Positions 8,684-61,429 are shown, counted from the first letter of the stretch. The stretch is 64,000 nucleotides of DNA from Bdellovibrionota bacterium (GCA_964202055.1 CAXNGS010000001.1:32186-96185); one strand, 5' to 3'. The notes: a model not told the origin generated them from the letters alone. Made by a program: numbers and translations.

Positions 8684-10681
8684 ATGAACGACGAATCCGG
8701 AGATGATAATGATCCAAAGAACACCATAACCAGTGAATTGCAGACCGATGACTTAACGCTAACCTCTAATGATCAAAATTACGGTGAGTCTGATCGCTTG
8801 CGCTCGCAACATTTGAAGAGCTTGCTGGGTTCGGCGGGGCTTCGGACTCGAGCCGAAATGGAATTTCTCGTTCGGATTGATGCACGCGAGGCATCTACTG
8901 AATTTTTGAATCGCTATGCTAAAAAAGTTGGATCCTATCCTAATTTTCAAGTCACTGGTGAAGACACCTCATGTATCTTAGGGCCGGTCAATGAGCCTCA
9001 ATTAAAGGAATGGACTGACAGTGGTTATTTAACTGCAAGTGCTTTAGTTCAGAAACCATTTGATCGTTGGAAAGAAATTGGAACGGTTTTTCCGGATTGG
9101 ATTTTTCGAATGGGAGTGGGAGAGTTCACTCAGACTGGAGAATTTGATTCTGATTCAGATGAACGAGACAGCACTCGTTCGGGGCGTGAGTTAATCCGTG
9201 ATGTAGACATCACCATACAGATACCAGAAAGTATTGTGCAACGAACGTCCGTTCGTAATGTCATTAATCAAAAATCTGCTTCTGATAGTTCAGATCGTGT
9301 AAAAGCAGTGCCTCCACCACTCTCGCCGACCTTCATTGCTGGAATTGTTTTTGTAGGAGTCATCACCATCGTGGGAATTTTTTACGTGGGTGGTGGAAAG
9401 TTTCGAAAAAACTCGACAGTTAATTACGAGCCCATCAAATCTGTTCCGACTCAAAATGTTGAAATCACACCTAGTCCTGGCGTCGTTTTGGAGTCTGACT
9501 GGCCGGCAAATTTGCGTCCACTGAGCTATGAAGAAATTAAATCTGGTTCTGAGTTTCGTTTGAAAAGCGTGGCTTCGGTCCTCAGTTCTTTTGAGCGCGG
9601 AATGCGCACGCTTGATGAACGCGACAGTGTTACATTGCGACGAGCCGCAGATCCAGGCGCGGCCTCTTTTGATGGAAGAAAAGTTGCGAGTAATTTGTTA
9701 GCCGCGTTTTTATTCTTAGATCAAAAAAATCTAAAGGAAGCCCGGGCTCTATTAGAGGGAGCTCGAGAGTTAGATCCCAAAGACCCAATAACTTTGATCA
9801 ATCTAGGTTTGCTTGAGTACTCAGAAAGAAATTATCCAGCGGCTATCGAGAACTTTCAAATTGTTTATCGATTGCGGCGCGATGCTTACGACTGGTTGAT
9901 GTCTTCTTTGATTGGATTGGCGCTTTTTGAACAAGGCAAGAATGAAGAAGCGAATCAGAATTTTAACGAAGCTTTGAATCGTCGTCCCTCCAATCCGATT
10001 ATTTATGGACTTTGGATTAAGGGACTGCTGGGTAACAAGAAAGCGGTGAGTTCTGAGGTAAATGCTTTGCTGCAAAAAGCGCTGTGGTCTGATTTTGATA
10101 TTTTGAGAGATTCTCCATTGCCGGCTCCGATTTTTATTCCGTATATCGATGTTTTGTATGATGAGGGCTGGGCAAAAGCATTAAAAATGCCTGGTCTTAA
10201 TTTAAGCGCAGGAAAAAAATTGTTCATTGAATGGTTCCAAGCGCGAGATCGACCCACTGGTAAAGTTTGGAATGATTTGCGAGAGCTACTAGTTCGGGAT
10301 GATGATGTTCAATCCAAATTTTTGCTGGCTTATATGTTGAAGGAATCCGGTCGAAGTGAAGAAGCCGGAGATGTCTTGCTCAAATCAATAGGTGCTTTGT
10401 CAGGCGAAAGGACCCTGGTGGGTTCTGCTCCGTGGTCTTTTGCAGGAGAGTTGCTTTTAAGACGTGGTTCTATTGATGAAGCGGCTCGTTATTTCAATGC
10501 GGCACTTGAGAAAAATCAAACCGATGCCGCGGCCTTAAACGGTTTAGCGGTGATTGCGCGATCACTTGGAAATTATTCGACTGCCGAACAAAAATTCGAT
10601 GAGGCCTCAAGTCTTGATCATTTTTTTATTCCCGCGAAAATGCGCGTTTCCAGGTCTAAATGGCAAGACCGATTTAAATAA
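8684..10681 (+). CDS. GYF-like domain / single-TM / TPR-repeat protein
   Basis: It starts 1 nt after the MCE stop. It has an acidic N-terminus, the segment 'GPVNEPQLKEWTDSGYLTASALVQKPFDRWKEIGTVFPDW' (GYF_2-like) and a TM helix 'FIAGIVFVGVITIVGIFYVGG'. The C-terminal half has TPR-like A/L/Y/N repeats. Confidence 0.55.
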   Translation: MNDESGDDNDPKNTITSELQTDDLTLTSNDQNYGESDRLRSQHLKSLLGSAGLRTRAEMEFLVRIDAREASTEFLNRYAKKVGSYPNFQVTGEDTSCILGPVNEPQLKEWTDSGYLTASALVQKPFDRWKEIGTVFPDWIFRMGVGEFTQTGEFDSDSDERDSTRSGRELIRDVDITIQIPESIVQRTSVRNVINQKSASDSSDRVKAVPPPLSPTFIAGIVFVGVITIVGIFYVGGGKFRKNSTVNYEPIKSVPTQNVEITPSPGVVLESDWPANLRPLSYEEIKSGSEFRLKSVASVLSSFERGMRTLDERDSVTLRRAADPGAASFDGRKVASNLLAAFLFLDQKNLKEARALLEGARELDPKDPITLINLGLLEYSERNYPAAIENFQIVYRLRRDAYDWLMSSLIGLALFEQGKNEEANQNFNEALNRRPSNPIIYGLWIKGLLGNKKAVSSEVNALLQKALWSDFDILRDSPLPAPIFIPYIDVLYDEGWAKALKMPGLNLSAGKKLFIEWFQARDRPTGKVWNDLRELLVRDDDVQSKFLLAYMLKESGRSEEAGDVLLKSIGALSGERTLVGSAPWSFAGELLLRRGSIDEAARYFNAALEKNQTDAAALNGLAVIARSLGNYSTAEQKFDEASSLDHFFIPAKMRVSRSKWQDRFK

Positions 10682-10966
10682 AATTTCGCTCGGAATTTGT
10701 TCAATTGGCCAGCCCATTTTTTTTAACTCGGCAGCTAGCCCTTGGAGAATTCGCTTGGTTTCGAATTGAATTTCTTGACGCCAAACTGGATCCTTCACGG
10801 AAAGATGGAGGACCGGAACTTGGCCATTTTTATGAATTCCCAAAAACTCTGCATGTTGCGCTATGACCGGTCCCGCTGTTTTTTTCCAGGCAGCTATGGC
10901 CTGTAAAGGCCCAAAATCCTTTGAAATTTCACCAAAGCTTTTGGGCAGGTTTTTGTGGTAACTCAT
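10607..10966 (-). CDS. DUF721 (DciA-like) domain protein
   Basis: 'AIAAWKKTAGPVIAQHAEFLGIHKNGQVPVLHLSVKDPVWRQEIQFETKRILQGL' fits the DUF721 pattern. Its 3' end overlaps the convergent TPR gene by 75 nt. Confidence 0.45.
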   Translation of the reverse strand: MSYHKNLPKSFGEISKDFGPLQAIAAWKKTAGPVIAQHAEFLGIHKNGQVPVLHLSVKDPVWRQEIQFETKRILQGLAAELKKMGWPIEQIPSEILFKSVLPFRPGNAHFRGNKKMIKT

Positions 10967-11659
10967 TTGAAGTTTCCGATGCTATCCAATTTGCGGGACT
11001 TGTGGCAAGCTCGGGCCCAAATGACTTTCCCACGTGCCTTTTCTTTGGTTCTTAGAGCTCGGTATCGGGGAACGTTGCTACTCTTACTTTTGATTTTAAG
11101 TGGTTGTGCTTATCGAGTGGCTCGTCAGGAACTTCGACTCGTTCCAGGTGAATCAGAAATCAGAAACTATCAATTGGCGATTCCAGTTTTTGACAACCTC
11201 AGCAGCCGAACTTCAGGTTCGGAATCGGTGCTGACGGATGCCTTTAGAAGTCGCTGGGCTCGAGTTTCAAACGTCAGCATCGTTAATTCGAATTCTGAGT
11301 TATTTTTACTGGGAAAAATCACTGAGTGGAGTTTGAATTCAGGAAGAGACTTGTTCACGGGCACGGCCGTAACCCAGTCTTTCGGGGGGCTGTCGGAATT
11401 GCAGAGCTCGGTTGCTAACATGGTTTTGCACGTGGAAATTAAAGTTGAGTTGCTTCGAAATGTTGGGGGTGCTCAACAGGTCATTTGGTCGAAAACATTA
11501 AAGGGCTCCAAGAGCTTCGAAGCTTATAATCGTTTGGACGAAAAAAGTGGATCGTCTAGTTCTCCAATGATTCAGGAATCTCGAGAGCGATTGGCTTTGC
11601 GCCGATTGGCCGAAGATTTAGCGAACTCTTCGATCGAATCTTTTCGGGAGAATTTTTGA
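10955..11659 (+). CDS. lipoprotein, LptE-like by position
   Basis: Lipobox 'LLILSGC'. It lies immediately upstream of, and overlaps, the putative holA, as lptE-holA does in proteobacteria. The true start is probably the internal ATG at 11021 (MTFPRAF...). Confidence 0.4.
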   Translation: MVTHLKFPMLSNLRDLWQARAQMTFPRAFSLVLRARYRGTLLLLLLILSGCAYRVARQELRLVPGESEIRNYQLAIPVFDNLSSRTSGSESVLTDAFRSRWARVSNVSIVNSNSELFLLGKITEWSLNSGRDLFTGTAVTQSFGGLSELQSSVANMVLHVEIKVELLRNVGGAQQVIWSKTLKGSKSFEAYNRLDEKSGSSSSPMIQESRERLALRRLAEDLANSSIESFRENF

Positions 11660-12660
11660 TGGCGGCCTCTGCTGAAATTTTTTTTGAAGGACTCTGGAAA
11701 GGAAATTTTCCCGAGTTCATTCAAATTCGTGGAGAGAATCCGTTTTTAGAGCGAGAGCTGCGCACATCTTTTAAAAACTTAGGCTTTGATATTTTCCGCG
11801 AAGATTTGAAAACAAGCTCGCCAAATGGAGCGCTAGAAGACATTGGGCTGGCTACTTCTTTGTTTCAACCTCGTCGCGTGCTTTGGGTTCAATCAAAAAC
11901 TGGTAGCGATAAATGGAGCAAAGAGGGACTGCGAATTTGGAACCGAATTGTTTCCAATGCAGACCCCGAAACTATGGTTTTGATTTTTCAAATCACCACA
12001 GCACCGTCGGGTGCCAAGAAAACTAAGTCTAAAGATGACTCTCCGGCTGCCGAATTTATTAATTTTCAAGCAGTCGACAAAACTTTCTGGCTTGAGCAAT
12101 TGAATTTGCGGCGCAAAAAATTCTTAGATCCCGGGCGCCGCGGATTCATCATGAATTTGGATCTTGATTTAATGGCTATGGAAAATGCGGTTGAGCTTTG
12201 GTCTTTAGGTGGCGATGGGTGGGCGACTGATAATTTGGGTTGGGCTTCTAAAGGTGGCTCCTCGGCAGCGATCAATCCCTTAGGAAATTCCTCGGCAAAT
12301 CCAAGTTTTGCTTGGGTTGATGCAGTGTTGGATGGAAGAGAATCCGAAGCTGCCTTGCTATCGAAAGAATTATTGAATGGCGGCGGTGAATTCTTGATGC
12401 TGCTCGGGCTTTTGACGAAATCTTTGAAAATTTGGGCCATGCTCGAAGAGGGAAGAGTCGATTCTACTCAACCACCCTTTTTAGTTAGTAAACTTCAAAA
12501 GGTTCGCAAGACTTGGCAGCAGCGTGAGGGCAATTCGGCGGCGGCACTTCAGCGAATTTTGCACTGGTGCGCGAATTCGGATTTCTGGATAAAGAGCAAG
12601 CCAGTAGATGACGAATCACTAATGCTGAGAATTTCTGAAAGCTCTCGTTCGCATCGATAA
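11656..12660 (+). CDS. holA: DNA polymerase III delta subunit (putative)
   Basis: 334 aa. The size, the lptE-holA-like context and the helical C-terminal half all fit. I recognise no strong motif. Confidence 0.5.
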   Translation: MMAASAEIFFEGLWKGNFPEFIQIRGENPFLERELRTSFKNLGFDIFREDLKTSSPNGALEDIGLATSLFQPRRVLWVQSKTGSDKWSKEGLRIWNRIVSNADPETMVLIFQITTAPSGAKKTKSKDDSPAAEFINFQAVDKTFWLEQLNLRRKKFLDPGRRGFIMNLDLDLMAMENAVELWSLGGDGWATDNLGWASKGGSSAAINPLGNSSANPSFAWVDAVLDGRESEAALLSKELLNGGGEFLMLLGLLTKSLKIWAMLEEGRVDSTQPPFLVSKLQKVRKTWQQREGNSAAALQRILHWCANSDFWIKSKPVDDESLMLRISESSRSHR

Positions 12661-12687
12661 AAAAAATCTCAACTAAAATTTGGACAA

Positions 12688-12727
12688 TAAAAAACCCGCG
12701 CTAGGAAAATTTCCTAATGCGGGTTCA
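12688..12727 (-). terminator. rho-independent terminator of rpsT
   Basis: On the minus strand, ACCCGCATTAGGAAA / TTTCCTAGCGCGGGT form a 12/14 bp hairpin followed by TTTTTT. Confidence 0.7.
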
Positions 12728-12737
12728 AATATGAAAA

Positions 12738-13112
12738 TTATTTTTTGCTAGCTTTAGCTTTTACTGCCTTAGGAGCCGCAGCGGCTTTCGGTGCAGCTTT
12801 TGCTGCTTTAGCAGCGGCAGCTTTCGGAGCAGGAGCAGCGGCTACAGGAGCGGCCGACATTCCATTCAAAGACGTTTGCAGACGCGAAATGCGTCGTGCT
12901 GCATTTTTCTTATGAATGATTCCTTTTGAAGCGGCTTTGGCCAATTCTGAAATCGCTTGTTTCACGCTTTCAGGGCTGGTCTTAGCTTTGCTTTGAACTT
13001 GGTCGCGCGCAGTTTTGATAAAAGTTTTAAAACGGCTGCGGGCCTTTTTGTTTCTTTCGGTTTTACGAGTTGTTTGACGAATTCGCTTTTTTGACGAGAC
13101 TGTATTTGCCAT
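12738..13112 (-). CDS. rpsT: 30S ribosomal protein S20 with Ala/Lys/Pro-rich C-terminal tail
   Basis: 'MANTVSSKKRIRQTTRKTERNKKARSRFKTFIK' and 'KGIIHKKNAARRISRL' are canonical S20. The last ~40 aa are AAPKAAAAKAAKAAPKAAAAPKAVKAKASKK. Confidence 0.9.
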   Translation of the reverse strand: MANTVSSKKRIRQTTRKTERNKKARSRFKTFIKTARDQVQSKAKTSPESVKQAISELAKAASKGIIHKKNAARRISRLQTSLNGMSAAPVAAAPAPKAAAAKAAKAAPKAAAAPKAVKAKASKK

Positions 13113-13151
13113 TGAAAGGGACTTACTGTTTTTTGCTAATCAGTGTCAAGT

Positions 13152-14024
13152 CTATGTTTTCCTTCGGGACCTGAGCTCGGACTTAGCTTGTTTCCATTGC
13201 TCTTCAAGTTCATCCCGTGGAATCGCTTTCCAATCACCGGAAGCTCGCGCAGGATCTTTGGATTGCAGCTGTTTTTCAACGGTTTCAAAGCGATTGATGA
13301 ACTTGTCGTTGGCTAAGGCCAGGGCTTCTTCGCTTGAAATTCCAAGATGGCGGGCCAGTTGAACCACCGAGAAAAGCAGATCACCTAGCTCTTCTTTGAT
13401 GGCGGGTTGATTGGTTTTTTCGGAGTGCATTTCGTCCTTAAGTTCTTGAAGTTCTTCTGAAATTTTATCTAAAACTTCAGCAGGCTCGTTCCAGTCGAAA
13501 TTATGCTGCCCACTTCTTTCGCCAATCTTATGGGAGCGAACAAGTTCGGAAAGGCAGCTTGAATACTCTAAAAAGTCACTGGTTTTGGAGGCCAAGTTGT
13601 TGTTTTTTCGGGCCGCTAATTTTTCTGATTTCTTGCGGTTTCGCCACTCCAATAGCACTTCTTCGAGGGTCCAAGATTTTTGCGATTGCACGGGATCAAA
13701 AACATGGGGGTGGCGATCAACGATTTTTTGAGTCCATGAATCGAGGTTAGTAGCCACGCTGCGGCCGCTGGATTCGCTCAAGAGGATTAGGTGAAGGACG
13801 GATTGAAGCCAAAGATCTCCGAGCTCGTCGATGGCTTCAAGGCCAGGGTTGGGGTTTTGCGAAGGCTTGCGAATGGCTGCCATAAGCTCGCCAACTTCTT
13901 CTTTTAAATAGGGAAAGAGGCTCTCGTGAGTTTGGGTTTTGAGCCAGGGACAGGCCTTGTCCCCCCGAAACATTTGATTCACTGAGTTAAAATACTTCCA
14001 CAACGCTTCCGAACTTTGGCTCAT
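13152..14024 (-). CDS. mazG: nucleoside triphosphate pyrophosphohydrolase, tandem MazG domains
   Basis: Two EExxE/ELGD motifs: 'EEVGELMAAI...ELGDLWLQ' and 'EELQELKDEM...EELGDLLFSVVQLARHLGI'. Confidence 0.85.
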   Translation of the reverse strand: MSQSSEALWKYFNSVNQMFRGDKACPWLKTQTHESLFPYLKEEVGELMAAIRKPSQNPNPGLEAIDELGDLWLQSVLHLILLSESSGRSVATNLDSWTQKIVDRHPHVFDPVQSQKSWTLEEVLLEWRNRKKSEKLAARKNNNLASKTSDFLEYSSCLSELVRSHKIGERSGQHNFDWNEPAEVLDKISEELQELKDEMHSEKTNQPAIKEELGDLLFSVVQLARHLGISSEEALALANDKFINRFETVEKQLQSKDPARASGDWKAIPRDELEEQWKQAKSELRSRRKT

Positions 14025-14070
14025 GGGCTAAGAAATTATGTCAAAAGAACCGAAATAACTATGAGAAAGC

Positions 14071-15702
14071 ATGGGAAAAATCGAAGAAAGCCAGCAGCAG
14101 GAACTGAGAAACCTGCGACCCTCAAAGTGGAGCCGGCTCAAAGCCGTTTTGATTCGTGTGAACAATCGCGTTCACTACGTCGAAGCGCTTCTGAGCGTGG
14201 TTTTAGTTTTGTTCATCGCGGCCATGCTCGACGAGCGATTAAATCCTAAGTCGATTGATTTCGGATTAAGGAGCTCTTCCTTGTGGGTGGCTGTATTGGC
14301 GGCGCTTTCACTTTGGTGCACTGTTATTTTCTTCCGCCGCCAACTGCAATCGGTTTTGCAGTCCACTAAAGATAGTTTGGTCACGATCCTTTTGCTGCTG
14401 ACCAGCGTGGCGGCTTTTAAAATCACTTTAATTTTTCAAATGGACATCATCGCCGGATATTTTCTGTCAGTTCCGAAATCTTTTTTTCTATTTTTAATTC
14501 CGATTGCAGCCCCAGCCATGATTCAGCGAATGCTTTTCAGCGGAAGCTTGATTGTGCTTTTCAATGTCTTGCACGCTTTGTTCTTGGGATTTTTGCTGGA
14601 GCAGGCCTTTCAGTATGGAATGTATGTTTTTTGTGTTTCGATCATGGGTGCGTTGTTTGTTTCGCAAACACGAACTCGCAATTCGGTTCATCTGGCGGGA
14701 TTTCGAACCGCGATTGTTTCGGCGATTGCTGCGGCGGTGACTTCGCTTTCCTGGGGTGCCGAACTGCCGATTTATTCTGATTTCGTTGCCAAGGGCATGA
14801 ACTTTAATTTTTCGATGTGGGAAATTGCTGGATGGAGCGCGCTTGGTGGATTCATTGGCGGATGGGTGTCTTCGGCATTGGCGATGGCGGTGACTCCGCT
14901 GAGTGAAATTGTGCTCGATTACACGACCGATTTAAAATTGGTTGAGTTGTCGCGGATGGATCATCCGTTGCTTCGCGAGTTAGTTATGAAGGCGCCCGGA
15001 ACTTATCACCATTCCATCATTGTTGGATCGTTGTCCGAGGCTGCGGCTGAATCGATTGGGGCCAATGCTTTGTTGGTACGGGTCGGAAGTTACTATCACG
15101 ACATCGGTAAAATCGGTCGAGCGGAATATTTTGTGGAAAACCAAACTCGTGGTTACAACCCTCACGATCACATCCGTCCGAGTTTGTCGGCCAAGATTAT
15201 TATTTCGCACGTGAAGGATGGAAAAGCTTTAGCCGATGAATATAAATTGGGGTCGGCGATCAGCGATTTCATCATGCAACATCATGGGCGTTCGTTGGTT
15301 TCTTATTTTTACAACAAAGCCAAACAAGAAGCCGCGCAACCAGATTCAGAAGTCAATGAGTCGGAAATTTCCGAAGAAGATTATCGATATCCTGGACCCA
15401 ATCCGCAAACTAAAGAGGCGGCGATCATGGCATTGGCGGATTCTTGCGAAGCGGCCACTCGGTCTTTGATCGATCCGACTCCGGCGCGCATTGAAGCGAT
15501 GGTCACAAAAATCATCACTAAAGCTCTTAATGATGGTTTGCTCGATGAGGCTGAAATCACCCTGCGAGAATTGCGCTTAGTGGCCAAGGCCTTCAACCGA
15601 ATTTTAATGAGCATCCATCACAGCCGCATTCAGTATCCGAACCAAGAAGAGGGCATGCCTCCGCAAAATGTGACCTTCTTGGGGAAAAATGTTAAATCCT
15701 GA
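14071..15702 (+). CDS. 7TM-HD (PgpH/YqfF-like) membrane phosphohydrolase
   Basis: About 7 TM helices followed by an HD domain, 'HHSIIVGSLSEAAAE...GSYYHDIGK...HH'. It lies upstream of ybeY, as in the conserved phoH-pgpH-ybeY cluster. Confidence 0.8.
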   Translation: MGKIEESQQQELRNLRPSKWSRLKAVLIRVNNRVHYVEALLSVVLVLFIAAMLDERLNPKSIDFGLRSSSLWVAVLAALSLWCTVIFFRRQLQSVLQSTKDSLVTILLLLTSVAAFKITLIFQMDIIAGYFLSVPKSFFLFLIPIAAPAMIQRMLFSGSLIVLFNVLHALFLGFLLEQAFQYGMYVFCVSIMGALFVSQTRTRNSVHLAGFRTAIVSAIAAAVTSLSWGAELPIYSDFVAKGMNFNFSMWEIAGWSALGGFIGGWVSSALAMAVTPLSEIVLDYTTDLKLVELSRMDHPLLRELVMKAPGTYHHSIIVGSLSEAAAESIGANALLVRVGSYYHDIGKIGRAEYFVENQTRGYNPHDHIRPSLSAKIIISHVKDGKALADEYKLGSAISDFIMQHHGRSLVSYFYNKAKQEAAQPDSEVNESEISEEDYRYPGPNPQTKEAAIMALADSCEAATRSLIDPTPARIEAMVTKIITKALNDGLLDEAEITLRELRLVAKAFNRILMSIHHSRIQYPNQEEGMPPQNVTFLGKNVKS

Positions 15703-15707
15703 TTCGC

Positions 15708-16238
15708 TTGGCATTTCGAACCGATATTGAATATTCAATTGCAAAAAGTGATTTGCCGTTGTCAGCCGCTCAAATAAAAAATTTAGCGCGACTTCTCAAA
15801 CCACTCGGATCGAAGTTGCCCAAATACAAAGCCTGGAGAAAAATAATGGGTTGCGAGCCTGATGCTTGGGCCATTTTGTTTTGCGATGATTTGGAAATGC
15901 GGATTTATCAAAAAAAATTTCGCAAATTAGATCGAACCACGGATGTGTTGAGTTTCCCGGCTTTTGAACGAAGTGGGCTTAATGAGTTGTATTCGAAATT
16001 GCCTAAAGGCCAGCGGAGCTTGGGCGATGTTGTGATTTCGATGCCGGCGGTGGTCCGCGGGGCTAAGCGCGCTCGTCGTCCGGTGGCTGCCGAGTTAGTA
16101 GAGGTTTTAATCCACGCTTATCTGCATTTACTGGGTTTTGATCACGTGGTGGGCGCCGGGGTGGGCGCCAAAGATGCTCGAGAAATGAAGGCGCTTCAAA
16201 AGGCTTTGTTTAAAATGATTTTTCCCCAACTTTCGTGA
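15708..16238 (+). CDS. ybeY: rRNA maturation endoribonuclease YbeY
   Basis: 'HAYLHLLGFDH' metal-binding motif. TTG start is uncertain. Confidence 0.85.
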   Translation: MAFRTDIEYSIAKSDLPLSAAQIKNLARLLKPLGSKLPKYKAWRKIMGCEPDAWAILFCDDLEMRIYQKKFRKLDRTTDVLSFPAFERSGLNELYSKLPKGQRSLGDVVISMPAVVRGAKRARRPVAAELVEVLIHAYLHLLGFDHVVGAGVGAKDAREMKALQKALFKMIFPQLS

Positions 16239-49302: not shown

Positions 49303-50814
49303 ATGAAAATCATAAAAATTTTTTCCAATTCGATCGCAAGCACTTTGATGGGCTCATTGATTTTATCGACCGCCGCGAGTGCTGTAGATTTTACAATTCA
49401 ATTGCAGAGCGTAAGGGTCTCAGGTTCGCGAAGTGCTGGGAAGTTGACTTACACAGCCTTGATTAAAAACTTGGACACTGATGCCTTCAATGGCGACGTG
49501 AGAATCAAAGCCATTTTAATTCCCTCGAATGATGACTCTTCGGGGCGGGTCCAGCAAAAAGGTGTGGTCTTGCCATCGAAAGATGTAAGAATCTCTCTTC
49601 AAGCCGGTGCTTCACAAGTGATCAGCGTTTCAGAAGCCTTGCCAAAGGTTCCCAGTGACAATTATCTTTTGGGTGCGATTGTTAACTCCAACCGAGCGGT
49701 TGAAGAGTCCAACATTGATAATGACTTGAGTGCGGATCTATTGGCTGTCGGTCGAGTGAGTAACAATGTTGCTGGGCCAGAAACCCAAGCCCATGATTGC
49801 TATTCTGATACCGAAAATTTTCAAGTCGATAACACCGTTTCTGGTGCCACCCATAGTTGGAGGCTTTTTTGTCGGGGATCTGCTGAGAATCTTGGTCTCT
49901 TTGCTCTGTTCATGATTGCTGATTTGAAAGCTAAAAAACTTTATATGTCAGATTATGAAAAAGGGGTGGGTTGGATAAACATGGGCACCGATGTCGACGC
50001 CCAAGGTCGCGATGTTCCTTACGATGTTTACTGGCAATCACCGACTTATAAAGATTTAAAAGCTGGTAAATATTATTTATTGAGTCTCGTGAACGCTAGA
50101 GATGCTTTACGTGAAGTCGATCATTCTAATAATTTAGATTTGCGGAAATTTGAAATCAGTCCTGCTTATTTCGTAAACAAAGATGAAGATTGGTACAACT
50201 TCGATGCGGGAGCAGCGGTTCCTCAAACTCGCTTAGTTAATTTTGTAACCGATTTTTCAGAGCAAGCCCGAATCGAGATCAATCCATCATCGATTCCTTC
50301 GTGCATGAGTTTAAAGGACAAGGTTGGAGACTTCAGTGAGGGTAAATTCACCACCGAAGCCACTGTGAATTGTGGTCGATTGCCCTTGGGCCATCATGAA
50401 TTTCAAATTCAAGCCAAGGCGACGTTGAATGGTCGAGAAGAGCACTTAGTGCTGCCCATAGTGGTCAACGTGTTTTCGTCATCCGACAAACCTTCAGTTC
50501 AAATCACAGACCATTTAGATTTGACCGCAGTGAAACCCGGATTGAGTGGCGCTAAATGGTTGGGCTTGAAAAATTCGGGCAATGGCGATGCTTGGTACCG
50601 AGTTTGGTCGAATGATCCGTGGGTTGTGTTGGCGCCTGATTTTCGAGGCGTTAATCGCGTTAAAGCAGGCTCAAGCGTCAGCATTTCGATCATGGCTGAT
50701 TCTCAGCAATTGCCGGTTTCAAAAACCGCAACGGGCACGATTTTGGTTCAGACTAGTGTGAGTGCGGAAATTGTTGAAGTTCCGGTCAACGTGAGAGTAC
50801 AACTGATTCATTGA
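49303..50814 (+). CDS. secreted multi-domain beta-rich protein (CARDB/Ig-like repeats suspected)
   Basis: Signal peptide 'LILSTAASA'. Segments with 'N.DNDLS' / 'VDHSNNLD' recur and resemble the ends of CARDB-type domains. Confidence 0.45.
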   Translation: MKIIKIFSNSIASTLMGSLILSTAASAVDFTIQLQSVRVSGSRSAGKLTYTALIKNLDTDAFNGDVRIKAILIPSNDDSSGRVQQKGVVLPSKDVRISLQAGASQVISVSEALPKVPSDNYLLGAIVNSNRAVEESNIDNDLSADLLAVGRVSNNVAGPETQAHDCYSDTENFQVDNTVSGATHSWRLFCRGSAENLGLFALFMIADLKAKKLYMSDYEKGVGWINMGTDVDAQGRDVPYDVYWQSPTYKDLKAGKYYLLSLVNARDALREVDHSNNLDLRKFEISPAYFVNKDEDWYNFDAGAAVPQTRLVNFVTDFSEQARIEINPSSIPSCMSLKDKVGDFSEGKFTTEATVNCGRLPLGHHEFQIQAKATLNGREEHLVLPIVVNVFSSSDKPSVQITDHLDLTAVKPGLSGAKWLGLKNSGNGDAWYRVWSNDPWVVLAPDFRGVNRVKAGSSVSISIMADSQQLPVSKTATGTILVQTSVSAEIVEVPVNVRVQLIH

Positions 50815-53926: not shown

Positions 53927-56044
53927 TTGGGGAGAACTCTTGTGAGCTTTGATTTCGATAAGATCGATTCGAAACATGATGAAAATTGGTGGTCGTCATA
54001 CGCCGATTTATTTTCCATGATTTCAGTAATCTTTTTGATGATGTACGTGGTGTCTTCGATGCGATCTGGCATCGGTGGCGTACAAACTCAAATGCAGTTT
54101 CAGCAAATCAGCAAAGAGAATCAAGATTTGAAACAACAGCTAGAGGTTTACAACACTTTAAAGGAAGACCAGCTCAAAGATTCATCAGATCAAGAGCAAG
54201 AAGTTTATCAAGGCTTGATGAAGCGGCTAACACTTTTGCAGGATGAAGCTCGTGATGAAAAAGACAACCTTCGAAAGCAAGCAAAAGAGAACGAAGAAAA
54301 AGAATTCGCGCTCAATCAGTATCAGCAAATCGTTCGTAACATCATCAACACCAACGTTTTGGCAAAAACCCAGATCAAACGCAAAGACACTTTGATCAGC
54401 ACTAAAAACGTTGATCTAAAAGAGAAGCAGCAAATCATCGAAGAACAGGAAAATGATTTGCAACAAAGCGCACAAGAGATATCTCAGTTGGAATCTTCAG
54501 TGGATCAAAAAGAGCAAACCATTGCAGAAAATCAGCAAAAAATTGACCAGGTCAATCAAGCCTTGGAAAATAAGATATCGCAATTGCGACAACAACAAGA
54601 AGCGGCCCAAATCACCAAAGCTCAGTTGAACTCTGAAATTAATAAATTGACCGATGAGTCTCAGCAAACCATAGCGCAACTTGAGGCTAGGAAGCGGCAG
54701 ACTCAATTAGCGCTGGAGCAAACCAAAAATAATTTGGACAAAGTCCAAGAAGAAATGGTCGAGCAACAAAAGCAAAACGCTACCGAGCGTGAACGCTTGG
54801 TCGGTGAAATGCAAGACGTAAAGGGCCAGTATCAGGGGCAGATTGCGGCATTGCATGCAGAACACCAAGAGCAAATTGCTGAAGAGCGTGCGGCCCGAGA
54901 GCGTTTGAAAAAAATGGGAGCTAAACAACGAGCCGCTCAAGAGGCCAAACTGCGCGCCGAAGCTGCGGCTCGTGAATCAGAATTTAAAAATGCCATTGGT
55001 GATTTGAATGGCAAAATTGCCGATTCAGAGCGTGACTTGGCAGACAATTTAGCTCAAGTCGAAAATTTAAGGGGCCAGGTCCAGGCCGCTTCTGGTCGGT
55101 TGGCTGCATCTGAACGCGAAAAAGGTCGATTGGCCGCAGAAAAAGCGCGGTTGGCTGGAAGTCTAGAAGCGACCGAAGCTGAAAAGGGGCGATTGTCTGC
55201 AGAGAAAAATCGATTGGCCGGAAATCTTGCAGCAGCTGAGGGCGAAAAGGGTCGACTGGCGGCGGAGAGCTCTCGATTGGCTGGAAATTTGGAAGCCACC
55301 GAAGCTGAAAGAGGTCGATTGGCGGCGGAGAAGAATCGACTGGCTGGAAATCTGGCTGCAGCTGAAGGCGAAAAGGGTCGTTTGGCGGCTGATCGAAATC
55401 GTGCTTTGGCCAGCGTTTCGAATCTTGAAAAAGAGCGAGAAAATTTGAGCGGTGAATTAAAACGAGCTCAAGAAGTCGCCAATGCTAAGAAAAAATTGAT
55501 TGGTCAGATCAAACAAAATTTAAAAACTGCAGGCTTGGAAGCCGAAATCGACGCCAAGAGCGGCGACGTGGTTTTATCTTTTGGTGAAGAATACTTTGAT
55601 ACCGGTAGTGCGATTTTGAAGCCCAGCATGACTGGAATTTTGAACCGCTTCATGCCCAGTTATTCAGATTCGCTTTTCAACGATCCAAACATTGCAGATA
55701 AAATCACCAACGTGGAAATCGTGGGTTATGCCAGTCCGACTTTTAATGGCAAATACGTAAATCCAGAAAGTTTAAATCCCAAAGATCAAGAAGCGATTCG
55801 TTACAATTTGAAACTGAGTTCTTCACGAGCTCAAGCAATTTTTAATCACATCTTTGATACCAAAAAATTGAAATATCAAAAACAACGAGATCTATTGCCA
55901 AAAGTTAAAGTGGTCGGCCGCGGTTATTTGCCGAACGGAAAAAAATGGGACGACATTCCGTCCACCATGACCGAAAAAGAATTCTGCAAACGTTTCAATT
56001 GTCAGAAAGCACAGCGAGTCGTGATTCGCTTTAACATGGAGTGA
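53927..56044 (+). CDS. MotB-like protein with ~480-aa coiled-coil spacer and C-terminal OmpA/MotB-type domain
   Basis: The channel helix 'WWSSYADLFSMISVIFLMMYVV' can be compared with E. coli MotB 'YADFMTAMMAFFLVMW'. Its Asp codon is at 54005-54007. The middle is Q/E/K/A/L heptad-rich. The C-terminal core is 'VEIVGYASP...NLKLSSSRAQAIFNHI...VVGRGY'. The start may instead be GTG 53942, which has a GGGGAG RBS. Confidence 0.75.
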   Translation: MGRTLVSFDFDKIDSKHDENWWSSYADLFSMISVIFLMMYVVSSMRSGIGGVQTQMQFQQISKENQDLKQQLEVYNTLKEDQLKDSSDQEQEVYQGLMKRLTLLQDEARDEKDNLRKQAKENEEKEFALNQYQQIVRNIINTNVLAKTQIKRKDTLISTKNVDLKEKQQIIEEQENDLQQSAQEISQLESSVDQKEQTIAENQQKIDQVNQALENKISQLRQQQEAAQITKAQLNSEINKLTDESQQTIAQLEARKRQTQLALEQTKNNLDKVQEEMVEQQKQNATERERLVGEMQDVKGQYQGQIAALHAEHQEQIAEERAARERLKKMGAKQRAAQEAKLRAEAAARESEFKNAIGDLNGKIADSERDLADNLAQVENLRGQVQAASGRLAASEREKGRLAAEKARLAGSLEATEAEKGRLSAEKNRLAGNLAAAEGEKGRLAAESSRLAGNLEATEAERGRLAAEKNRLAGNLAAAEGEKGRLAADRNRALASVSNLEKERENLSGELKRAQEVANAKKKLIGQIKQNLKTAGLEAEIDAKSGDVVLSFGEEYFDTGSAILKPSMTGILNRFMPSYSDSLFNDPNIADKITNVEIVGYASPTFNGKYVNPESLNPKDQEAIRYNLKLSSSRAQAIFNHIFDTKKLKYQKQRDLLPKVKVVGRGYLPNGKKWDDIPSTMTEKEFCKRFNCQKAQRVVIRFNME
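55118..55432 (+). repeat. 63-nt (21-aa, three-heptad) in-frame tandem repeat, ~5 units
   Basis: The units start at 55118, 55181, 55244, 55307 and 55370. They encode EKGRLAAEKARLAGSLEATEA, EKGRLSAEKNRLAGNLAAAEG, EKGRLAAESSRLAGNLEATEA, ERGRLAAEKNRLAGNLAAAEG and EKGRLAADRNRALASVSNLEK. The ...EATEA and ...AAAEG endings alternate through the four conserved units, giving a 126-nt super-period; the fifth unit is degenerate. Confidence 0.9.
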
Positions 56045-56059
56045 TTTTAAGAGGTATAT

Positions 56060-57049
56060 ATGCACGCACTTATAAAAAGCTTAATTGACCTAGTCGTACT
56101 CTTCACCAACCAGTTCTTAGTGCCCTTTCTTTTGTCGGCCTTTGTGTTCGGGGTGATTGCCCGAATCTTGGTCTTCTACACTGTGAAGCGCCAAGAGTGG
56201 TTTGTAAAAGAATTTGAAAAACGGGTGATCAAGCACGTTGAAAAAGAGGTTGGCAACGCTCGAAAATCCGAGAGTTTCTACATTCTTTCAAAACGACTTT
56301 TAGAAAAAACCTATTATGAACTTTTCGAGGTTCGCGCCGCGAATAAACGCCGACGCACTGATTACATCACGACTCCCAGTGATCGACTCTTTTTGATTCA
56401 AACCGGCTCGGCTTGGTTTGTTCGCGAAGCTTTGCGCCACTTTAGATTTTTAAGAAAATCAGACGAAGATCCTAAGTTTTTGGACATTTCAAAAAACATA
56501 TTTAAAAGTGTGGCTCCTTGGAATAAAGTTTTTGGAATCGTTCCCGTTGGTCCACTCAACGATCTTTTGAACTTGATGTCCGGACTTTTCATCATCGGCG
56601 GTATCTTTGGAACTTTCAACGGGATCATGGAAGCGTTGCCATCTCTTGGTGGCATGGACATGGCCGACATTGAAAAAAGTCAAAAGACCATGAGCATTTT
56701 CTTAGCCCACGTATCCTTTTCGATGTCGACATCGATCATCGGGATCATGTGCTCAGTGTTGCTTGCGATTGTGAATGCACTTTGCAATCCTGAAAAAGCT
56801 TTCTTCATGACCGTCACTAAACTTGACGCCACTTTGGCTTTCTTGTGGGGCCGTTGCGAAACCAATGTAGTCCCCGACGGTACTCCACAATTCGATGAAC
56901 ATAAAGATCCCATTGATGCTCTTGCCGAACTCGCAGTCGACAAAGAGCTCAAGAATTACAGTCCCGGCGAAGACTCTGATCGCCCGCGACTTCCGATCAG
57001 CACGCCCAAAAGAGTGGAAAGCGAGGAGGCTAAGAAGACAGCCTCATAA
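56060..57049 (+). CDS. MotA/TolQ/ExbB-like proton-channel protein
   Basis: TM1 lies at aa ~20-45, followed by a ~120-aa loop, then TM2 and TM3. 'LFIIGGIFGTFNGIMEAL' and 'SMSTSIIGIMCSVLLAIVNAL' resemble the family signatures 'GLLGTVxGMIxAF' and 'ALxTTxxGLxVAI'. A ~90-aa C-terminal tail follows. Confidence 0.6.
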   Translation: MHALIKSLIDLVVLFTNQFLVPFLLSAFVFGVIARILVFYTVKRQEWFVKEFEKRVIKHVEKEVGNARKSESFYILSKRLLEKTYYELFEVRAANKRRRTDYITTPSDRLFLIQTGSAWFVREALRHFRFLRKSDEDPKFLDISKNIFKSVAPWNKVFGIVPVGPLNDLLNLMSGLFIIGGIFGTFNGIMEALPSLGGMDMADIEKSQKTMSIFLAHVSFSMSTSIIGIMCSVLLAIVNALCNPEKAFFMTVTKLDATLAFLWGRCETNVVPDGTPQFDEHKDPIDALAELAVDKELKNYSPGEDSDRPRLPISTPKRVESEEAKKTAS

Positions 57050-57056
57050 GTACTGA

Positions 57057-59411
57057 ATGAGTTCTGAACGCGTCGGTCACATCAAAATAGAATTGGTGAA
57101 GAACGGCGTTCGCTCGTCCAAAATCTACGGAAAATCTGTGGTTTCCGTGGGTCGCATGGATCAATCAGATCTCCAAATCGATGATCCATCGATGTCTCGC
57201 GAACATCTCAAAATCGAACTTAAAGACAAAAAATTATATGTGACGGATTTAGGATCCTCGAACGGATCTTTGCTGAATCATTCGCGATTAAATGCAAACA
57301 AAGCAACGGTGATTCCAGAGGGCGCAATCGTACGCCCCGGTAGCGCAAAAATAAAACTAACCATCACGCTCGTTGAAGTGCGAGATTTAGACGACGTTGA
57401 TGCCGAGCTCGAAGATTTAACTTCCGCGCTCGAAGGTTTGGCAAAAAATGGTGTTAAAAAAGTCCGTGAGATCCAACTGCATGAAGAGACTCTCCAAAAA
57501 TCAGTGAGAGCTAAGCAGGAAAAATTAGTTCAATTAGTCGATCGACTTGAGGCGCAAAGTTTAAAAAAAGAAGAAATTGAAATCGGACTTAAATGCCTAG
57601 AGCCCAAATTGGCTCGGGTGATGGCTCTGATGAAGCTACAGGAGCCCCGACTCCGAAAAATTTGGGTTCTTAGAAAAAAACAAATCAGATACTTTCAAAA
57701 TCGCCGCGAAGTTTTGCTAGCCTTAGGCGATAAAATCGATGACCTAGAAATCAACATTGAAAATCATGGACTGTCGGAAAAGCGCGATCGATTGCGAGAA
57801 GAGATTGCGCGTTTAACTGAATCACTAGAGAGCTTAAGACGCACTGAAGAGAAGACGCGCTCTGACGTGGAAGGTCAATTAAAGCTGCTCGACATGAGGA
57901 AGCAAACCGAACAGGCCGAACTCCAGTTAATCAAGGCGCGAATCCAAAAGGAAATTGAAGAAGTCGAAGGTAAAAAATCGATCGTTACTTCAAAACTTTT
58001 GGAGCTGCAGCGCGAGTTAACCGGAACCACTAAGCAACTAGAAGATGTGCGCGATCATTTGGCGGGCGAAGTGGCGGCCACAGAAAAAATAGAAAACGAA
58101 CGAAATTCCATCGAGGTTCACATTGAAGAGCTGGAGGGCGCGCGCAACGCCCACGAACGTAATATTAACGAACTTCATGCAGAAGAAAGCGATTTGGATT
58201 CACGAGTGACTGTTAAACGCGCGGAAGTCAAAGAGCTCGAAGACTTCATCGTAAATCGTTTGGCAGAAACCGATGAGCGATGCCGCCAGATGGAAAAAGA
58301 ATCACAAGACACCTTGGATCAGCAACTCTTTGAAGCTGCGCGTGTGGCCAAAGAGCAGCTCGAGCAAGAGTTGGCCTTTAAGCGTGAAGCCGTGAGCGTA
58401 GACCTTGCTCGACGCGAAAAAGAAATCACCGATCGAGTTAAGGCTTTGGAAAGCAATCTTCAAGAGCAAAGCAATTCTTTCGAAGAGCGGATGATGATCG
58501 AGGAAAAGCGAAGAAAAAATGAGCTCGATCTTCAGCTAAAAGAAATGCAAATACGCCATGAAGTGGTCATTCAAGAAAAAGAAAAAGAAAGCATGACCCG
58601 ACAATTCAAGCGTATGGAAAAACAATTGCGGGCACTGGCTGCTAGTTCTTTAACCACCGCAGCCCTCTACATAAAGAGCACTACACCTAACGCCGCATCA
58701 CTCTTATCTTCGCCCGAATTGGAGGATGAAGTTTTTCAATCGCTTAAAGAAGCGGTATTGCCGCAAAAAGATGGCAAGCCGGTCTTGGCTCGAGCCATTG
58801 ATTTATCCGACCGCGAACGCCGTTTTTGGACTCGTACCGGAGTCGCAGCCTTCGCAACTCTCACCATCATTGGTACTTTAGTGCTCAATCCAAACTGGCC
58901 GGGCCAAGTTCTGACTGGAATGGTTTCTTATGTTCGAAGCCAAGAAAGCAGTTCGGATTATTTCGCGCGCAAATTAGAAGAAGAAAAAGCCAATCGGCCC
59001 AAATTTTTGCCAGAGCAAAATAGGACTTATAAGGAAAGCTACACCGATAATCTTTTGTACACTGAAGGTTTCTTGTTGGTTAAATCCGACGAAGAGATTC
59101 GTAAGCATTGGACTCTTAAACTCAATGATTATTTGATCAAAGAATTCGAAGTCGATGAAGACGTGGTGGTGAAATTTTTACCAGTCGAATCTCGATTGGT
59201 GAATGATTTAGCCGAATCGATGAAAACGATCAGCCCCAATTTTGTAGAAGACGGCGTTCAAAAAATGCGCCAGATGGAACTTAGTTACAAAATCGAAATC
59301 GAATCCATATTGGGCAGTCCTGAAAATTTTAAAAAATTCTGGGCTTTTCAAGGCGAATTTTATAACGAAACCATCCAATCGTTGGGATCTCGGACACCGG
59401 CTGGCAATTAA
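57057..59411 (+). CDS. FHA domain / long coiled coil / single-TM protein
   Basis: FHA domain: 'VVSVGRMDQSDLQIDDPSMSREHLKIELKDKKLYVTDLGSSNGSLLNHSRL'. It is followed by ~450 aa of E/K/L/R-rich heptads, a TM helix 'GVAAFATLTIIGTLVLNPNW' and a ~170-aa C-terminal domain. Confidence 0.75.
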   Translation: MSSERVGHIKIELVKNGVRSSKIYGKSVVSVGRMDQSDLQIDDPSMSREHLKIELKDKKLYVTDLGSSNGSLLNHSRLNANKATVIPEGAIVRPGSAKIKLTITLVEVRDLDDVDAELEDLTSALEGLAKNGVKKVREIQLHEETLQKSVRAKQEKLVQLVDRLEAQSLKKEEIEIGLKCLEPKLARVMALMKLQEPRLRKIWVLRKKQIRYFQNRREVLLALGDKIDDLEINIENHGLSEKRDRLREEIARLTESLESLRRTEEKTRSDVEGQLKLLDMRKQTEQAELQLIKARIQKEIEEVEGKKSIVTSKLLELQRELTGTTKQLEDVRDHLAGEVAATEKIENERNSIEVHIEELEGARNAHERNINELHAEESDLDSRVTVKRAEVKELEDFIVNRLAETDERCRQMEKESQDTLDQQLFEAARVAKEQLEQELAFKREAVSVDLARREKEITDRVKALESNLQEQSNSFEERMMIEEKRRKNELDLQLKEMQIRHEVVIQEKEKESMTRQFKRMEKQLRALAASSLTTAALYIKSTTPNAASLLSSPELEDEVFQSLKEAVLPQKDGKPVLARAIDLSDRERRFWTRTGVAAFATLTIIGTLVLNPNWPGQVLTGMVSYVRSQESSSDYFARKLEEEKANRPKFLPEQNRTYKESYTDNLLYTEGFLLVKSDEEIRKHWTLKLNDYLIKEFEVDEDVVVKFLPVESRLVNDLAESMKTISPNFVEDGVQKMRQMELSYKIEIESILGSPENFKKFWAFQGEFYNETIQSLGSRTPAGN

Positions 59412-59414
59412 TTT

Positions 59415-60500
59415 ATGTGTTGGCTGTTCGCTTCAAGATTTTTTTTAAAAAATCTAACAGGAATTTTGTTGGCAGCCGTATGGCTCTTAGCAGGTTGCGC
59501 CTCGCGACCAGAATCAACCCGCAGTCCTCAGTCGATCTTTAGCGGGTGCATGGAGGCGGCTCAAAAAATTTTGGGCACCGATGATTATCGATCACGACTA
59601 AAAATCGTCGAAGACCTTTCTCGGAATGAAAAATTTGATGTTTTACGTGGAGTCCGTGAGGCCAAAACAAAGAATCCAATTTTATGGTGGAAGTTAAAGC
59701 GTCGCTTGGCACTTTTAGAAAAAGATGGACTGACGCCGGATCAAGTCGAATCGCTGGTGGCCGATTTGTATCGACTGGCCAACCCAGAATCATATGTGCG
59801 CAAGTGGTTTCGCGGTGGATACCAAGAAGTTAAAGAAGCCTACATCATTGAATCGATATCTCAGCGCTTGCTTAATGAAGACTTGTCCAAAGTCTTTGCC
59901 GATGTGGGGTTGCTGCGCGAAGCCGGAGCGATTGAAAAGATTCGAAGCCATTTTCGCGAACAGTTTCGAGCCTTCAATATCATTCTTTCTTTTTGGGCCA
60001 GTGGAATGTCGATCAGTCACGGAGTCCCCTTTGTTTATTTGCCCTCGCTCAATGTGATGGATCGAATCGAGATTCCTGCCTCTATCATTGATAAAATTTT
60101 CAAAAATGGTTTGGATTCAGCTTATCCCGATCTTGAGCGACTCTACGGCCGGCGCGGTGATTTTCATGCGCTCTGGGGCGAGTTTGTTAAGTATGGGACT
60201 TATGCGGCCTTTGGGTCTCTACTGATTTACAGTGGGCACCAAGCTTATGGTGAATATCAGAAGGCTAAAGCTCATGACCTAGCGGCAATCGAAGAAAAGG
60301 CGGCCCCGGAAAAACTAAGCGCTCGCGAGCAGCGGCTGCAAAAACAAATTGATGAGTGGAAAATTCGCTTTCGAAAAGATCAGGGTCGAGAGCCCAGCGA
60401 AGTGGAAACGAAAGATTATTCCCGAGTCCTCAAATTTTATGGCGGACCCGGGAACCGTTCAGAAGAATCTCAAGCAGCGCCAGAGGCTCTTAAAAATTAG
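59415..60500 (+). CDS. lipoprotein, unknown function
   Basis: Lipobox 'WLLAGC'. It starts 3 nt after the FHA gene stop. The C-terminal tail is charged. Confidence 0.55.
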   Translation: MCWLFASRFFLKNLTGILLAAVWLLAGCASRPESTRSPQSIFSGCMEAAQKILGTDDYRSRLKIVEDLSRNEKFDVLRGVREAKTKNPILWWKLKRRLALLEKDGLTPDQVESLVADLYRLANPESYVRKWFRGGYQEVKEAYIIESISQRLLNEDLSKVFADVGLLREAGAIEKIRSHFREQFRAFNIILSFWASGMSISHGVPFVYLPSLNVMDRIEIPASIIDKIFKNGLDSAYPDLERLYGRRGDFHALWGEFVKYGTYAAFGSLLIYSGHQAYGEYQKAKAHDLAAIEEKAAPEKLSAREQRLQKQIDEWKIRFRKDQGREPSEVETKDYSRVLKFYGGPGNRSEESQAAPEALKN

Positions 60501-60508
60501 CTTCTTGA

Positions 60509-61429
60509 TTAATTCAAAAGCAAGTTCAAGAATTCAGTTTGAGTTCGCTCTTCAACAGTCACTTGATATTGCAAGGCGATAACTTTGCGGTTGATCGCTT
60601 CAAAATCGGTCGCATTGACCGAAACAAATTTGCTGCTGATCGAATAAATTGCCCCGCCGAGTGCGATGCCACCAGCTCCAAAAATTTCTGCGACCAATGC
60701 GCCCATGCCGCTTCCAGTAATTCCGGCTACGATTCCAGCCGCGCCTAACACAGCAACCAAACCCGCAGCCGAATACGCTGGGATTTTGTAACCTTCTGAT
60801 TTGTTGTAGCTTCGGCGCGAAATTTCAAGTTCGATTTTCAATTCATCCAAGTGAGCCTTTAAATCATTCAGATCGGCTGAGCGATTTTTTACGATTTCTT
60901 TCAAGTGATCTCGAGCATCGGGACCAAGTCGAGTGAAGGATTCATATAAATCAGCCAAATCTTTTCGGTCTTCTTTAATGTTGGCTTCTAATTCGGCAAT
61001 TCCTTTTTCAATTTTAGCGACGTTGCTGAATCTAACTTTAACGGAAATTCCCGCGTCAGCTAAAATCGTGGCTCCGAAACCAAGCGCAATCAAAGTGCCG
61101 GTAGTTTTAGTCAAAACACCTTTTAAAAGAAATCGAGTGAAGACCACTGCGCCTACTGCTTCCAAAGAGTTCACTACAACCGAAGTTCCGCGAACCATTT
61201 TTGCTTTGCTAAGAATTTTCTTAAATTCCTCGATGCTTCTTTCTTGGGCGGTGATCACTTCTTTGCGGCGTTCGATGTCTTGGCGCAAAAAGTTTTCCAA
61301 ACCTGGTGAAAGCTGGCTGGCAGTTGCCTGAGTTGCTTGAGCGGTGGCAACGCGGGGAGTGGTGATCGCTGAGCTCACGGCCAACGTTGAAAAAATCATT
61401 CGTATCAGAGTGTTTTTGATCGATTTCAT
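60509..61429 (-). CDS. secreted/membrane protein with coiled coil and glycine-zipper C-terminal segment
   Basis: It has a signal peptide and the glycine-zipper segment 'AAGLVAVLGAAGIVAGITGSGMGALVAEIFGAGGIALGGAIY'. No recognisable domain. Confidence 0.45.
   Translation of the reverse strand: MKSIKNTLIRMIFSTLAVSSAITTPRVATAQATQATASQLSPGLENFLRQDIERRKEVITAQERSIEEFKKILSKAKMVRGTSVVVNSLEAVGAVVFTRFLLKGVLTKTTGTLIALGFGATILADAGISVKVRFSNVAKIEKGIAELEANIKEDRKDLADLYESFTRLGPDARDHLKEIVKNRSADLNDLKAHLDELKIELEISRRSYNKSEGYKIPAYSAAGLVAVLGAAGIVAGITGSGMGALVAEIFGAGGIALGGAIYSISSKFVSVNATDFEAINRKVIALQYQVTVEERTQTEFLNLLLN

Follow-up and report, generated by a model that had tools for sequence, protein, structure and literature searches.

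A 64,000-nucleotide stretch of DNA from a Bdellovibrionota bacterium (GCA_964202055.1, CAXNGS010000001.1:32186-96185; below "the window", with positions counted from its first letter) carries three adjacent open reading frames, ORF1, ORF2 and ORF3, which form a conserved unit inherited together across Bdellovibrionota. As far as can be told from their sequences, ORF2 and ORF1 encode the A and B subunits of a 5:2-type ion-driven motor, and their nearest known relatives are ZorA and ZorB of the Zorya system, not MotAB, TolQR, ExbBD or AglRQS. ORF3 encodes a predicted membrane protein with an FHA domain. We read the module as a ZorAB-related motor working with ORF3 as a resident envelope sensor or transducer, and put the probability of this reading as a whole at about 0.5. 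The superfamily is known; the architecture and the partner are new. Full-text searches of the literature found no description of the module, and every source annotation seen for its genes reads 'hypothetical protein'.

The locus consists of four plus-strand ORFs separated by 15, 7 and 3 nucleotides (nt), with minus-strand genes at both ends. The four ORFs and their spacing, given in an initial annotation, were confirmed. It had also proposed a MotB-like/MotA-ExbB-like ion-motor pair with B-then-A gene order, in which the B subunit carries a giant coiled coil, next to a coiled-coil partner with an FHA domain. All of this is supported here, and the motor pair can be described more specifically as ZorAB-related, a point that had been missed. 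The features of the locus are the following (aa, amino acids; TM, transmembrane):

53942..56044, + strand: ORF1, probable gene, 700 aa, predicted B (ZorB/MotB-like) subunit; longest frame 53927-56044, 705 aa
53987..54055, + strand: ORF1 channel helix, a single TM segment with WWSSYADLF; Asp codon at 54005-54007
54074..55546, + strand: ORF1 predicted periplasmic coiled-coil stalk, ~490 aa, Pro-free and heptad-rich
55101..55389, + strand: tandem repeat in the stalk, 63 nt (21 aa, three heptads), 4.6 copies, EKGRLAAEKNRLAGNLAAAEG, only in this genome
55547..56041, + strand: ORF1 predicted ZorB-type peptidoglycan-binding domain, with Y626/N627/L630/R634 and the Cys pair C687/C692
56060-57049, + strand: ORF2, 329 aa, predicted A (ZorA/ExbB/TolQ-class) subunit
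~56108-56179, + strand: ORF2 TM1
~56555-56635, + strand: ORF2 TM2, containing T185
~56690-56782, + strand: ORF2 TM3, containing S225
57057-59411, + strand: ORF3, 784 aa, predicted bitopic FHA partner
57141-57335, + strand: ORF3 FHA domain, residues 29-93, E 3.5e-15
57375-58676, + strand: ORF3 coiled coil, residues ~107-540, ~430 aa
~58827-58889, + strand: ORF3 predicted TM segment, residues ~591-611
58890-59408, + strand: ORF3 predicted periplasmic helical bundle, the conserved C-terminal domain of ~170 aa
59415-60500, + strand: ORF4, 361 aa, putative lipoprotein outside the conserved module

Predicted motor subunits and their FHA partner

The AlphaFold2 model of ORF2 (predicted local distance difference test, pLDDT, 75.6) has three long TM helices, with TM1 running into the cytoplasm, and a helical cytoplasmic domain. 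The motif GGIFGTF lies within TM2, in agreement with the three-TM layout and glycine-rich TM2 that had been noticed earlier. When the model was searched with Foldseek, ZorA came first and ExbB and TolQ next, and MotA was not among the top matches. At the sequence level, ORF2 stayed below the Pfam MotA_ExbB cut-off (13.1 bits against 22.9) and matched many ZorA models of PADLOC over TM2-TM3 (2e-5). ZorA models were matched by 25 of 25 family members (best 1.6e-11), and only ZorA was recovered when the ORF2 family profile was compared with all PDB sequences (8vvn, 3.5e-5; 8qyd series, 2e-4 to 8e-4). The ion filter of ZorA is formed by T147 and S184 (PMC11946911), which are aligned with T185 and S225 of ORF2. 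At a mean pairwise ORF2 identity of ~51% (48 loci), T185 is invariant together with G181, G184 and G188, and S225 is conserved in at least 90%.

ORF2 ends ~90 aa past TM3, the last ~30 aa being disordered, and it retains a ~50-aa stub that can be aligned to the base of the ZorA tail. Its extreme C-terminus (window 56960-57046) is conserved after a variable disordered linker: the final two residues are AS, AA, VA, AG, VS or SA in ~166 of 183 distinct ORF2 sequences, and Lys stands at position -3 in 89 of these 183. This conserved end may serve for docking or as a degron. Some ORF2 homologues (P0018, P0032, P0034, P0051 and others) carry the precomputed Pfam accession PF28082, which appears in no searchable paper and is perhaps a very recent addition to Pfam that covers the ORF2 family.

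The longest frame of ORF1 opens at TTG 53927, and GTG 53942 was chosen by one gene caller. The family N-terminus, MSFDYDK, and an upstream GGAG place the start at GTG 53942, which is the more likely one. Counted from this start, the channel Asp is D22, as opposed to D27 in the 705-aa frame; the MotB-type channel helix of the initial annotation is retained, with its TM segment, an Asp that does not vary in the family and a motif (W-x-S-Y-[SA]-D-L-F) kept in full-length family members, and only its numbering has to be changed. With this Asp and with T185 and S225 of ORF2, the residues of the ion path are all in place.

Among the Pfam families named initially, FHA was found in ORF3, whereas MotA_ExbB, MotB_plug and OmpA all fell under their gathering thresholds. 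For ORF1, MotB_plug reached 22.5 bits (E 8.5e-5; cut-off 24) and OmpA 20.0 bits (gathering threshold 27.2), although OmpA was found at E<=0.01 in 22 of 23 family C-terminal domains. The match to PADLOC ZorB1 was far stronger (3.7e-27) and covered two stretches, the TM helix and the C-terminal domain. All 23 family C-terminal domains matched this model (PDLC00609, best 5e-29). The OmpA/MotB-type domain reported earlier is OmpA/ZorB-like. The single ORF1 sequence had no match in the PDB; the family profile of the C-terminal domain, compared with all PDB sequences, had ZorB as its only significant match (8vvi_A, 2.8e-6). ZorB contacts peptidoglycan (PG) through Y151, N152, L155 and R159 (PMC11946911). 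ORF1 has all four residues with identical spacing (Y-N-x-x-L-x-x-x-R; Y626/N627/L630/R634), and these positions are invariant or nearly so in the family alignment. The Cys pair C687/C692 is invariant; it resembles the disulfides of ZorB and is consistent with a domain in the periplasm.

Between the channel helix and this domain lies the predicted stalk. ORF1 has no Pro in residues 1-565 and is heptad-rich from ~50 to 540, close to the ~480 aa of heptad-rich sequence that had been estimated. If extended, the stalk would measure ~70 nm. From the Asp to the C-terminus, family members span 364-685 aa (median 552), which corresponds to stalks of roughly 160-480 residues. The 21-aa repeat lengthens the stalk in this genome; it is missing from the closest relative (locus L002) and from all other loci, which indicates a recent expansion.

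Searches with the NCBIfam models of MotA, TolQ, ExbB, ExbD, TolR and AglR gave no match in ORF1 or ORF2, and the TolA, TonB_C and ExbD/TolR models of Pfam and NCBIfam had no match in the module proteins. These library searches agree with the earlier impression that the genes fit none of the flagellar, Tol, Ton, Agl or described Zorya sets. The NCBIfam ZorA and ZorB scores of ORF2 and ORF1 were far under the curated cut-offs, which makes the two proteins relatives of ZorA and ZorB, not equivalogs.

It could be argued that such a pair performs no ion-driven work, and that the coiled coils form a periplasmic and cytoplasmic skeleton or a PG-anchored polar landmark, for which the motor core would be a mere membrane anchor. 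The great and variable length of the coiled coils speaks for such a role, as does the existence of PG-binding coiled-coil hub proteins, e.g. FimV and HubP. However, despite the divergence of ORF2, little or no variation is seen in the Asp, in the Thr/Ser filter or in the Gly-rich TM2, and this strict conservation of ion-path residues argues for selection on ion conduction. We consider a purely structural role the least probable of all the explanations weighed here.

ORF3 has the composition described in the initial annotation, i.e. FHA domain, coiled coil, TM segment and a C-terminal domain of ~170 aa. The phospho-Thr-binding residues of the FHA domain (G32, R33, S47, H50, N69 and G70) are kept in 82-97% of 66 homologues. 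The TM segment is weakly hydrophobic in the window and clear in most homologues, where it always lies ~180-200 residues before the C-terminus, and basic residues flank it on the N-terminal side. Modelled with AlphaFold2 from 8 sequences, the C-terminal domain is a helical bundle with pLDDT ~90. Foldseek with this model returned generic helical bundles only (best E 0.6) and no significant PDB fold match; the domain has no Pfam family and no TonB_C. Against an index of 5.8 billion proteins, the single sequence of the domain found nothing and its profile only 7 fragments. On the strength of the model, it is a predicted novel periplasmic helical bundle. The match of ORF3 to NCBIfam GltG (2.9e-7) was confined to the FHA region, with 29 bits where the cut-off is 650. 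The FHA proteins Bd0473 and Bd0474 of Bdellovibrio are distinct from ORF3, as are the products of FHA-domain genes close to tad loci.

Conservation of the three-gene module

Relatives of ORF2 were sought in one genome per GTDB species, and loci were compared for the best 80. ORF2 relatives were present in at least 282 species genomes. Bdellovibrionota class labels (Bdellovibrionia, Bacteriovoracia, Oligoflexia) are attached to 75 of the 80 best loci, and the remaining five have vague labels or are evidently mis-binned; cultured Bacteriovorax and Peredibacter are among the 80.

Gene order proved to be highly conserved. By ORF clustering, an ORF1-like gene lies immediately 5' of the ORF2-like gene in 73 of the 74 loci with room for it. 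The sole miss (L009) is an ORF-picking artefact, since phmmer finds ORF1 there and an antisense 632-aa ORF had displaced the gene. Immediately 3' of the ORF2-like gene, an ORF3-like gene was found in 74 of 76 loci of other species. The two exceptions are L057, from a Silvanigrellaceae metagenome-assembled genome (MAG), with unrelated genes at the ORF3 position (10954-13181), and L068, where a small repeated ORF in two copies surrounds a foreign gene at that position (10912-16140), an arrangement that suggests an insertion. Pairwise distances of ORF1, ORF2 and ORF3 are correlated (r = 0.58-0.68; maximum of 500 label permutations 0.21), indicating that the three genes travel together.

Two module copies with ORF2 proteins 55% identical occur in a single MAG (JBBARF01; L056 and L067) and may be either real paralogues or the product of a mixed bin. 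Redundant assembly or binning accounts for the locus pairs L031/L033 and L023/L024, whose members are 100% identical.

ORF4 is not part of the conserved unit. A hidden Markov model (HMM) of its family found it in none of the 80 other module loci, a minus-strand gene occupies its position in the closest relative of the locus, and a homologue with 40% identity lies in an unrelated context beside NlpC/P60 and FG-GAP genes. The four-gene unit proposed initially was thus reduced to three genes, whose co-occurrence and order hold, and ORF4 was rejected as a fourth member. It carries an LLAGC lipobox, and a lipobox or signal peptide is present in its closest homologues too, in line with the earlier call of a lipoprotein. 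Its start differs among gene callers (361, 343 or 316 aa), and its family is divergent (~350 aa, secreted or lipoprotein, 58 cluster representatives, no Pfam model). ORF4 is a local, lineage-specific secreted protein or lipoprotein, probably co-transcribed with ORF1-3 in this genome.

The genes flanking the module vary among loci, and those in the window have housekeeping functions, with RsgA, HutD and cytochrome oxidase among them. One recurrent neighbour family (cluster 3) was examined as a partner and rejected as a generic PAS histidine-kinase family without a fixed position. The G+C content of the locus is not anomalous, and a consensus scan of the locus found no promoter or terminator signals beyond shuffled expectation. 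The strong AT skew at 54-56 kb is explained by the A-rich codons used in coiled-coil sequence. Long antisense ORFs within coiled-coil coding DNA (window 55054-55299, minus strand; L009 ~8000-9950, minus strand, 632 aa) are composition artefacts. Upstream, a secreted 503-aa protein without a Pfam match on record is encoded at 49303-50814 (plus strand), immediately 5' of the RsgA GTPase gene, with which its coding sequence overlaps by 4 nt. The convergent neighbour at 60509-61429 (minus strand) encodes a protein of 306 aa. Its N-terminus resembles a signal peptide, and it contains coiled-coil segments as well as hydrophobic stretches rich in Gly; in no other locus is it conserved beside the module.

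These observations bear on the suggestion that the module is a new Zorya-like anti-phage type, in which ORF3 would take the place of the ZorA tail and bring in, through its FHA domain, an effector whose gene lies outside the locus. Defence systems are typically sporadic and associated with islands or mobile elements. The present module occurs in at least 282 species of one phylum with its three genes inherited together, has housekeeping neighbours and an inconspicuous G+C content, and no relative of it was encoded on viral contigs. Its wide distribution, its variable flanks and the lack of viral-contig relatives favour a housekeeping machine over a defence island. Models of ZorC, ZorD, ZorE, ZorF, ZorG and other defence proteins gave no match in ORF3, ORF4 or the neighbours, and the PADLOC matches of ORF3 and ORF4 are coiled-coil noise. 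In favour of defence, ZorA and ZorB are the closest homologues of both motor subunits, and a long cytoplasmic coiled coil is used in Zorya signalling (PMC11946911). Taken together, we find a defence function very unlikely, and it is the least likely of the roles put forward in the initial annotation.

Proposed machine and its alternatives

We propose that an ORF1 dimer is seated in an ORF2 pentamer, and that both ORF1 chains would run on through the periplasm, paired in a long two-stranded coiled coil, with tip domains that would anchor to the cell wall. Ion flow would then make the ORF2 ring turn against the fixed ORF1 dimer. The long cytoplasmic rod would be supplied in trans by ORF3, standing in for the ZorA tail, and the single TM helix of ORF3 would dock on the motor as those of TolA, TonB and GltG do on theirs. 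With its FHA domain, ORF3 could couple motor activity to phospho-threonine-marked cytoplasmic partners, and with its novel helical domain it could couple the motor to the periplasm. The phylum-wide presence, the variable housekeeping flanks and the lack of a nuclease effector point to a resident envelope sensor or transducer, not to a mobile anti-phage system.

Several points weigh against this proposal. The contact between ORF3 and the motor is proposed from synteny and from the analogy with TolA, TonB and GltG, and comparison of homologues revealed no conserved polar motif in the ORF3 TM segment. The 'GHTD/S' motif of OmpA-like domains reads GFAS in ORF1, so that PG binding by its C-terminal domain is predicted and not proven. 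Stalk length differs about three-fold within the ORF1 family and did not co-vary with the length of ORF3 (rho 0.16, p 0.32), and a compliant stalk of 50-70 nm would be an odd reaction arm for a rotary motor. Finally, the phylum-wide presence is a lower-bound count and not a completeness-corrected profile.

The main alternative is that the module transmits force outwards, in the manner of Tol-Pal, Ton or AglRQS-Glt. Work would be delivered into the periplasm or to the outer membrane through the periplasmic domain of ORF3, the ORF1 stalk or both, for gliding, division, envelope remodelling or prey invasion, and the FHA domain would act only as a kinase-controlled on-switch. Long periplasmic stalks on B-like subunits exist in GldLM/PorLM, and three-gene operons of motor plus transducer are usual for Tol and Ton. 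The periplasmic domain of ORF3 is conserved and well folded in the model, and the layout of ORF3, with the GltG match of its FHA region, corresponds to that of the AglR-binding protein GltG (PMC3169522). However, ORF3 lacks TonB_C and a Pro-rich motif and its C-terminal domain belongs to no Pfam family, the B subunit is not of the ExbD/TolR type, and no outer-membrane partner gene is conserved nearby. Such a transducer would also leave the ~430-aa cytoplasmic coiled coil of ORF3 without a role, and the motor resembles ZorAB, which has been described as a sensor (PMC11946911). For these reasons, we judge outward force transduction to be rather unlikely.

Descriptions of ZorAB have so far concerned phage defence. 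If the sensor/transducer reading is correct, an effector-free, phylum-wide relative would show a cellular role of this motor lineage, and comparison with it would help to understand the sensing of envelope perturbation by Zorya. The question is directly testable, since the module is present in the cultured and tractable predators Bdellovibrio, Bacteriovorax and Peredibacter.

Comparison with known ion motors

TolQRA and ExbBD-TonB resemble the module in combining, in three components, a motor with a single-TM transducer, and Foldseek places the A subunits in one three-TM fold class. Their B subunits, however, belong to the ExbD/TolR type and lack an OmpA-like domain, the TM helix of their transducer is N-terminal with the long part in the periplasm, and their gene order is A then B.

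The gliding core AglRQS-GltG of Myxococcus and Bdellovibrio likewise pairs an ion motor with a bitopic protein, whose single TM helix separates an FHA domain in the cytoplasm from a C-terminal domain in the periplasm; GltG binds the AglR motor and has the layout N-terminal FHA, TM, periplasmic C-domain (PMC3169522). It differs in that the motor is of the TolQ/TolR type, that GltG has TonB_C and a Pro-rich motif but no long coiled coil, and that no Glt genes are linked to the present module.

GldLM/PorLM, the motor of type 9 secretion and gliding, has a B-like subunit with a long dimeric periplasmic stalk. The GldM stalk, however, is built from globular domains and leads to an outer-membrane ring instead of a PG-binding domain, and no sequence similarity to the module was detected.

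In MotAB and PomAB, as in the module, the B subunit is PG-anchored, has a channel Asp and contains a linker that joins the TM helix to the PG-binding domain. The MotB linker comprises roughly tens of residues, compared with hundreds in ORF1. MotA has four TM helices and a torque-generating cytoplasmic domain, whereas three TM helices are seen in the ORF2 model. Gene order is also reversed: the B gene was consistently downstream of the A gene in a survey of MotAB homologues (PMC12505986), and the module has B then A.

Zorya is the closest known system. Common to both are a three-TM A subunit with a Thr/Ser ion filter, a B subunit with a channel Asp and a Cys-bearing PG-binding domain with the Y-N-L-R contact residues, and a long cytoplasmic coiled coil within the system (types I-III; PDB 8qyd, 8vvn, 8vvi). 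Nevertheless, the module is not a described Zorya system. The order here is B then A, and the module is phylum-wide and co-inherited, not sporadic. ZorA has ~700 aa with a long C-terminal tail, compared with 329 aa and a ~50-aa stub in ORF2, and the cytoplasmic coiled coil is found on the separate FHA/TM protein ORF3. The PG-binding domain of ZorB is joined to its TM helix without a linker, and in E. coli the distance from inner membrane to PG is ~9 nm (PMC11946911); the B subunits of the module have ~300-500 aa of coiled coil in between (~490 in ORF1). A stalk of hundreds of residues, where ZorB has none and MotB a short one, challenges current ideas on how B subunits resist torque, and a tail supplied in trans by an FHA protein would be a further departure from known architecture. 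Tentatively, the module may represent an unrecognised class of 5:2 motors, a phylum-wide sister of Zorya with a stalk of 25-70 nm leading to its anchor and the tail split off onto an FHA membrane protein. Ion-driven rotation or twisting would then be tied to Ser/Thr-phosphorylation signalling and to long-range envelope mechanics in predatory bacteria. Zorya motors could have been recruited from such a module as their ancestral setting, or recruitment could have gone the other way.

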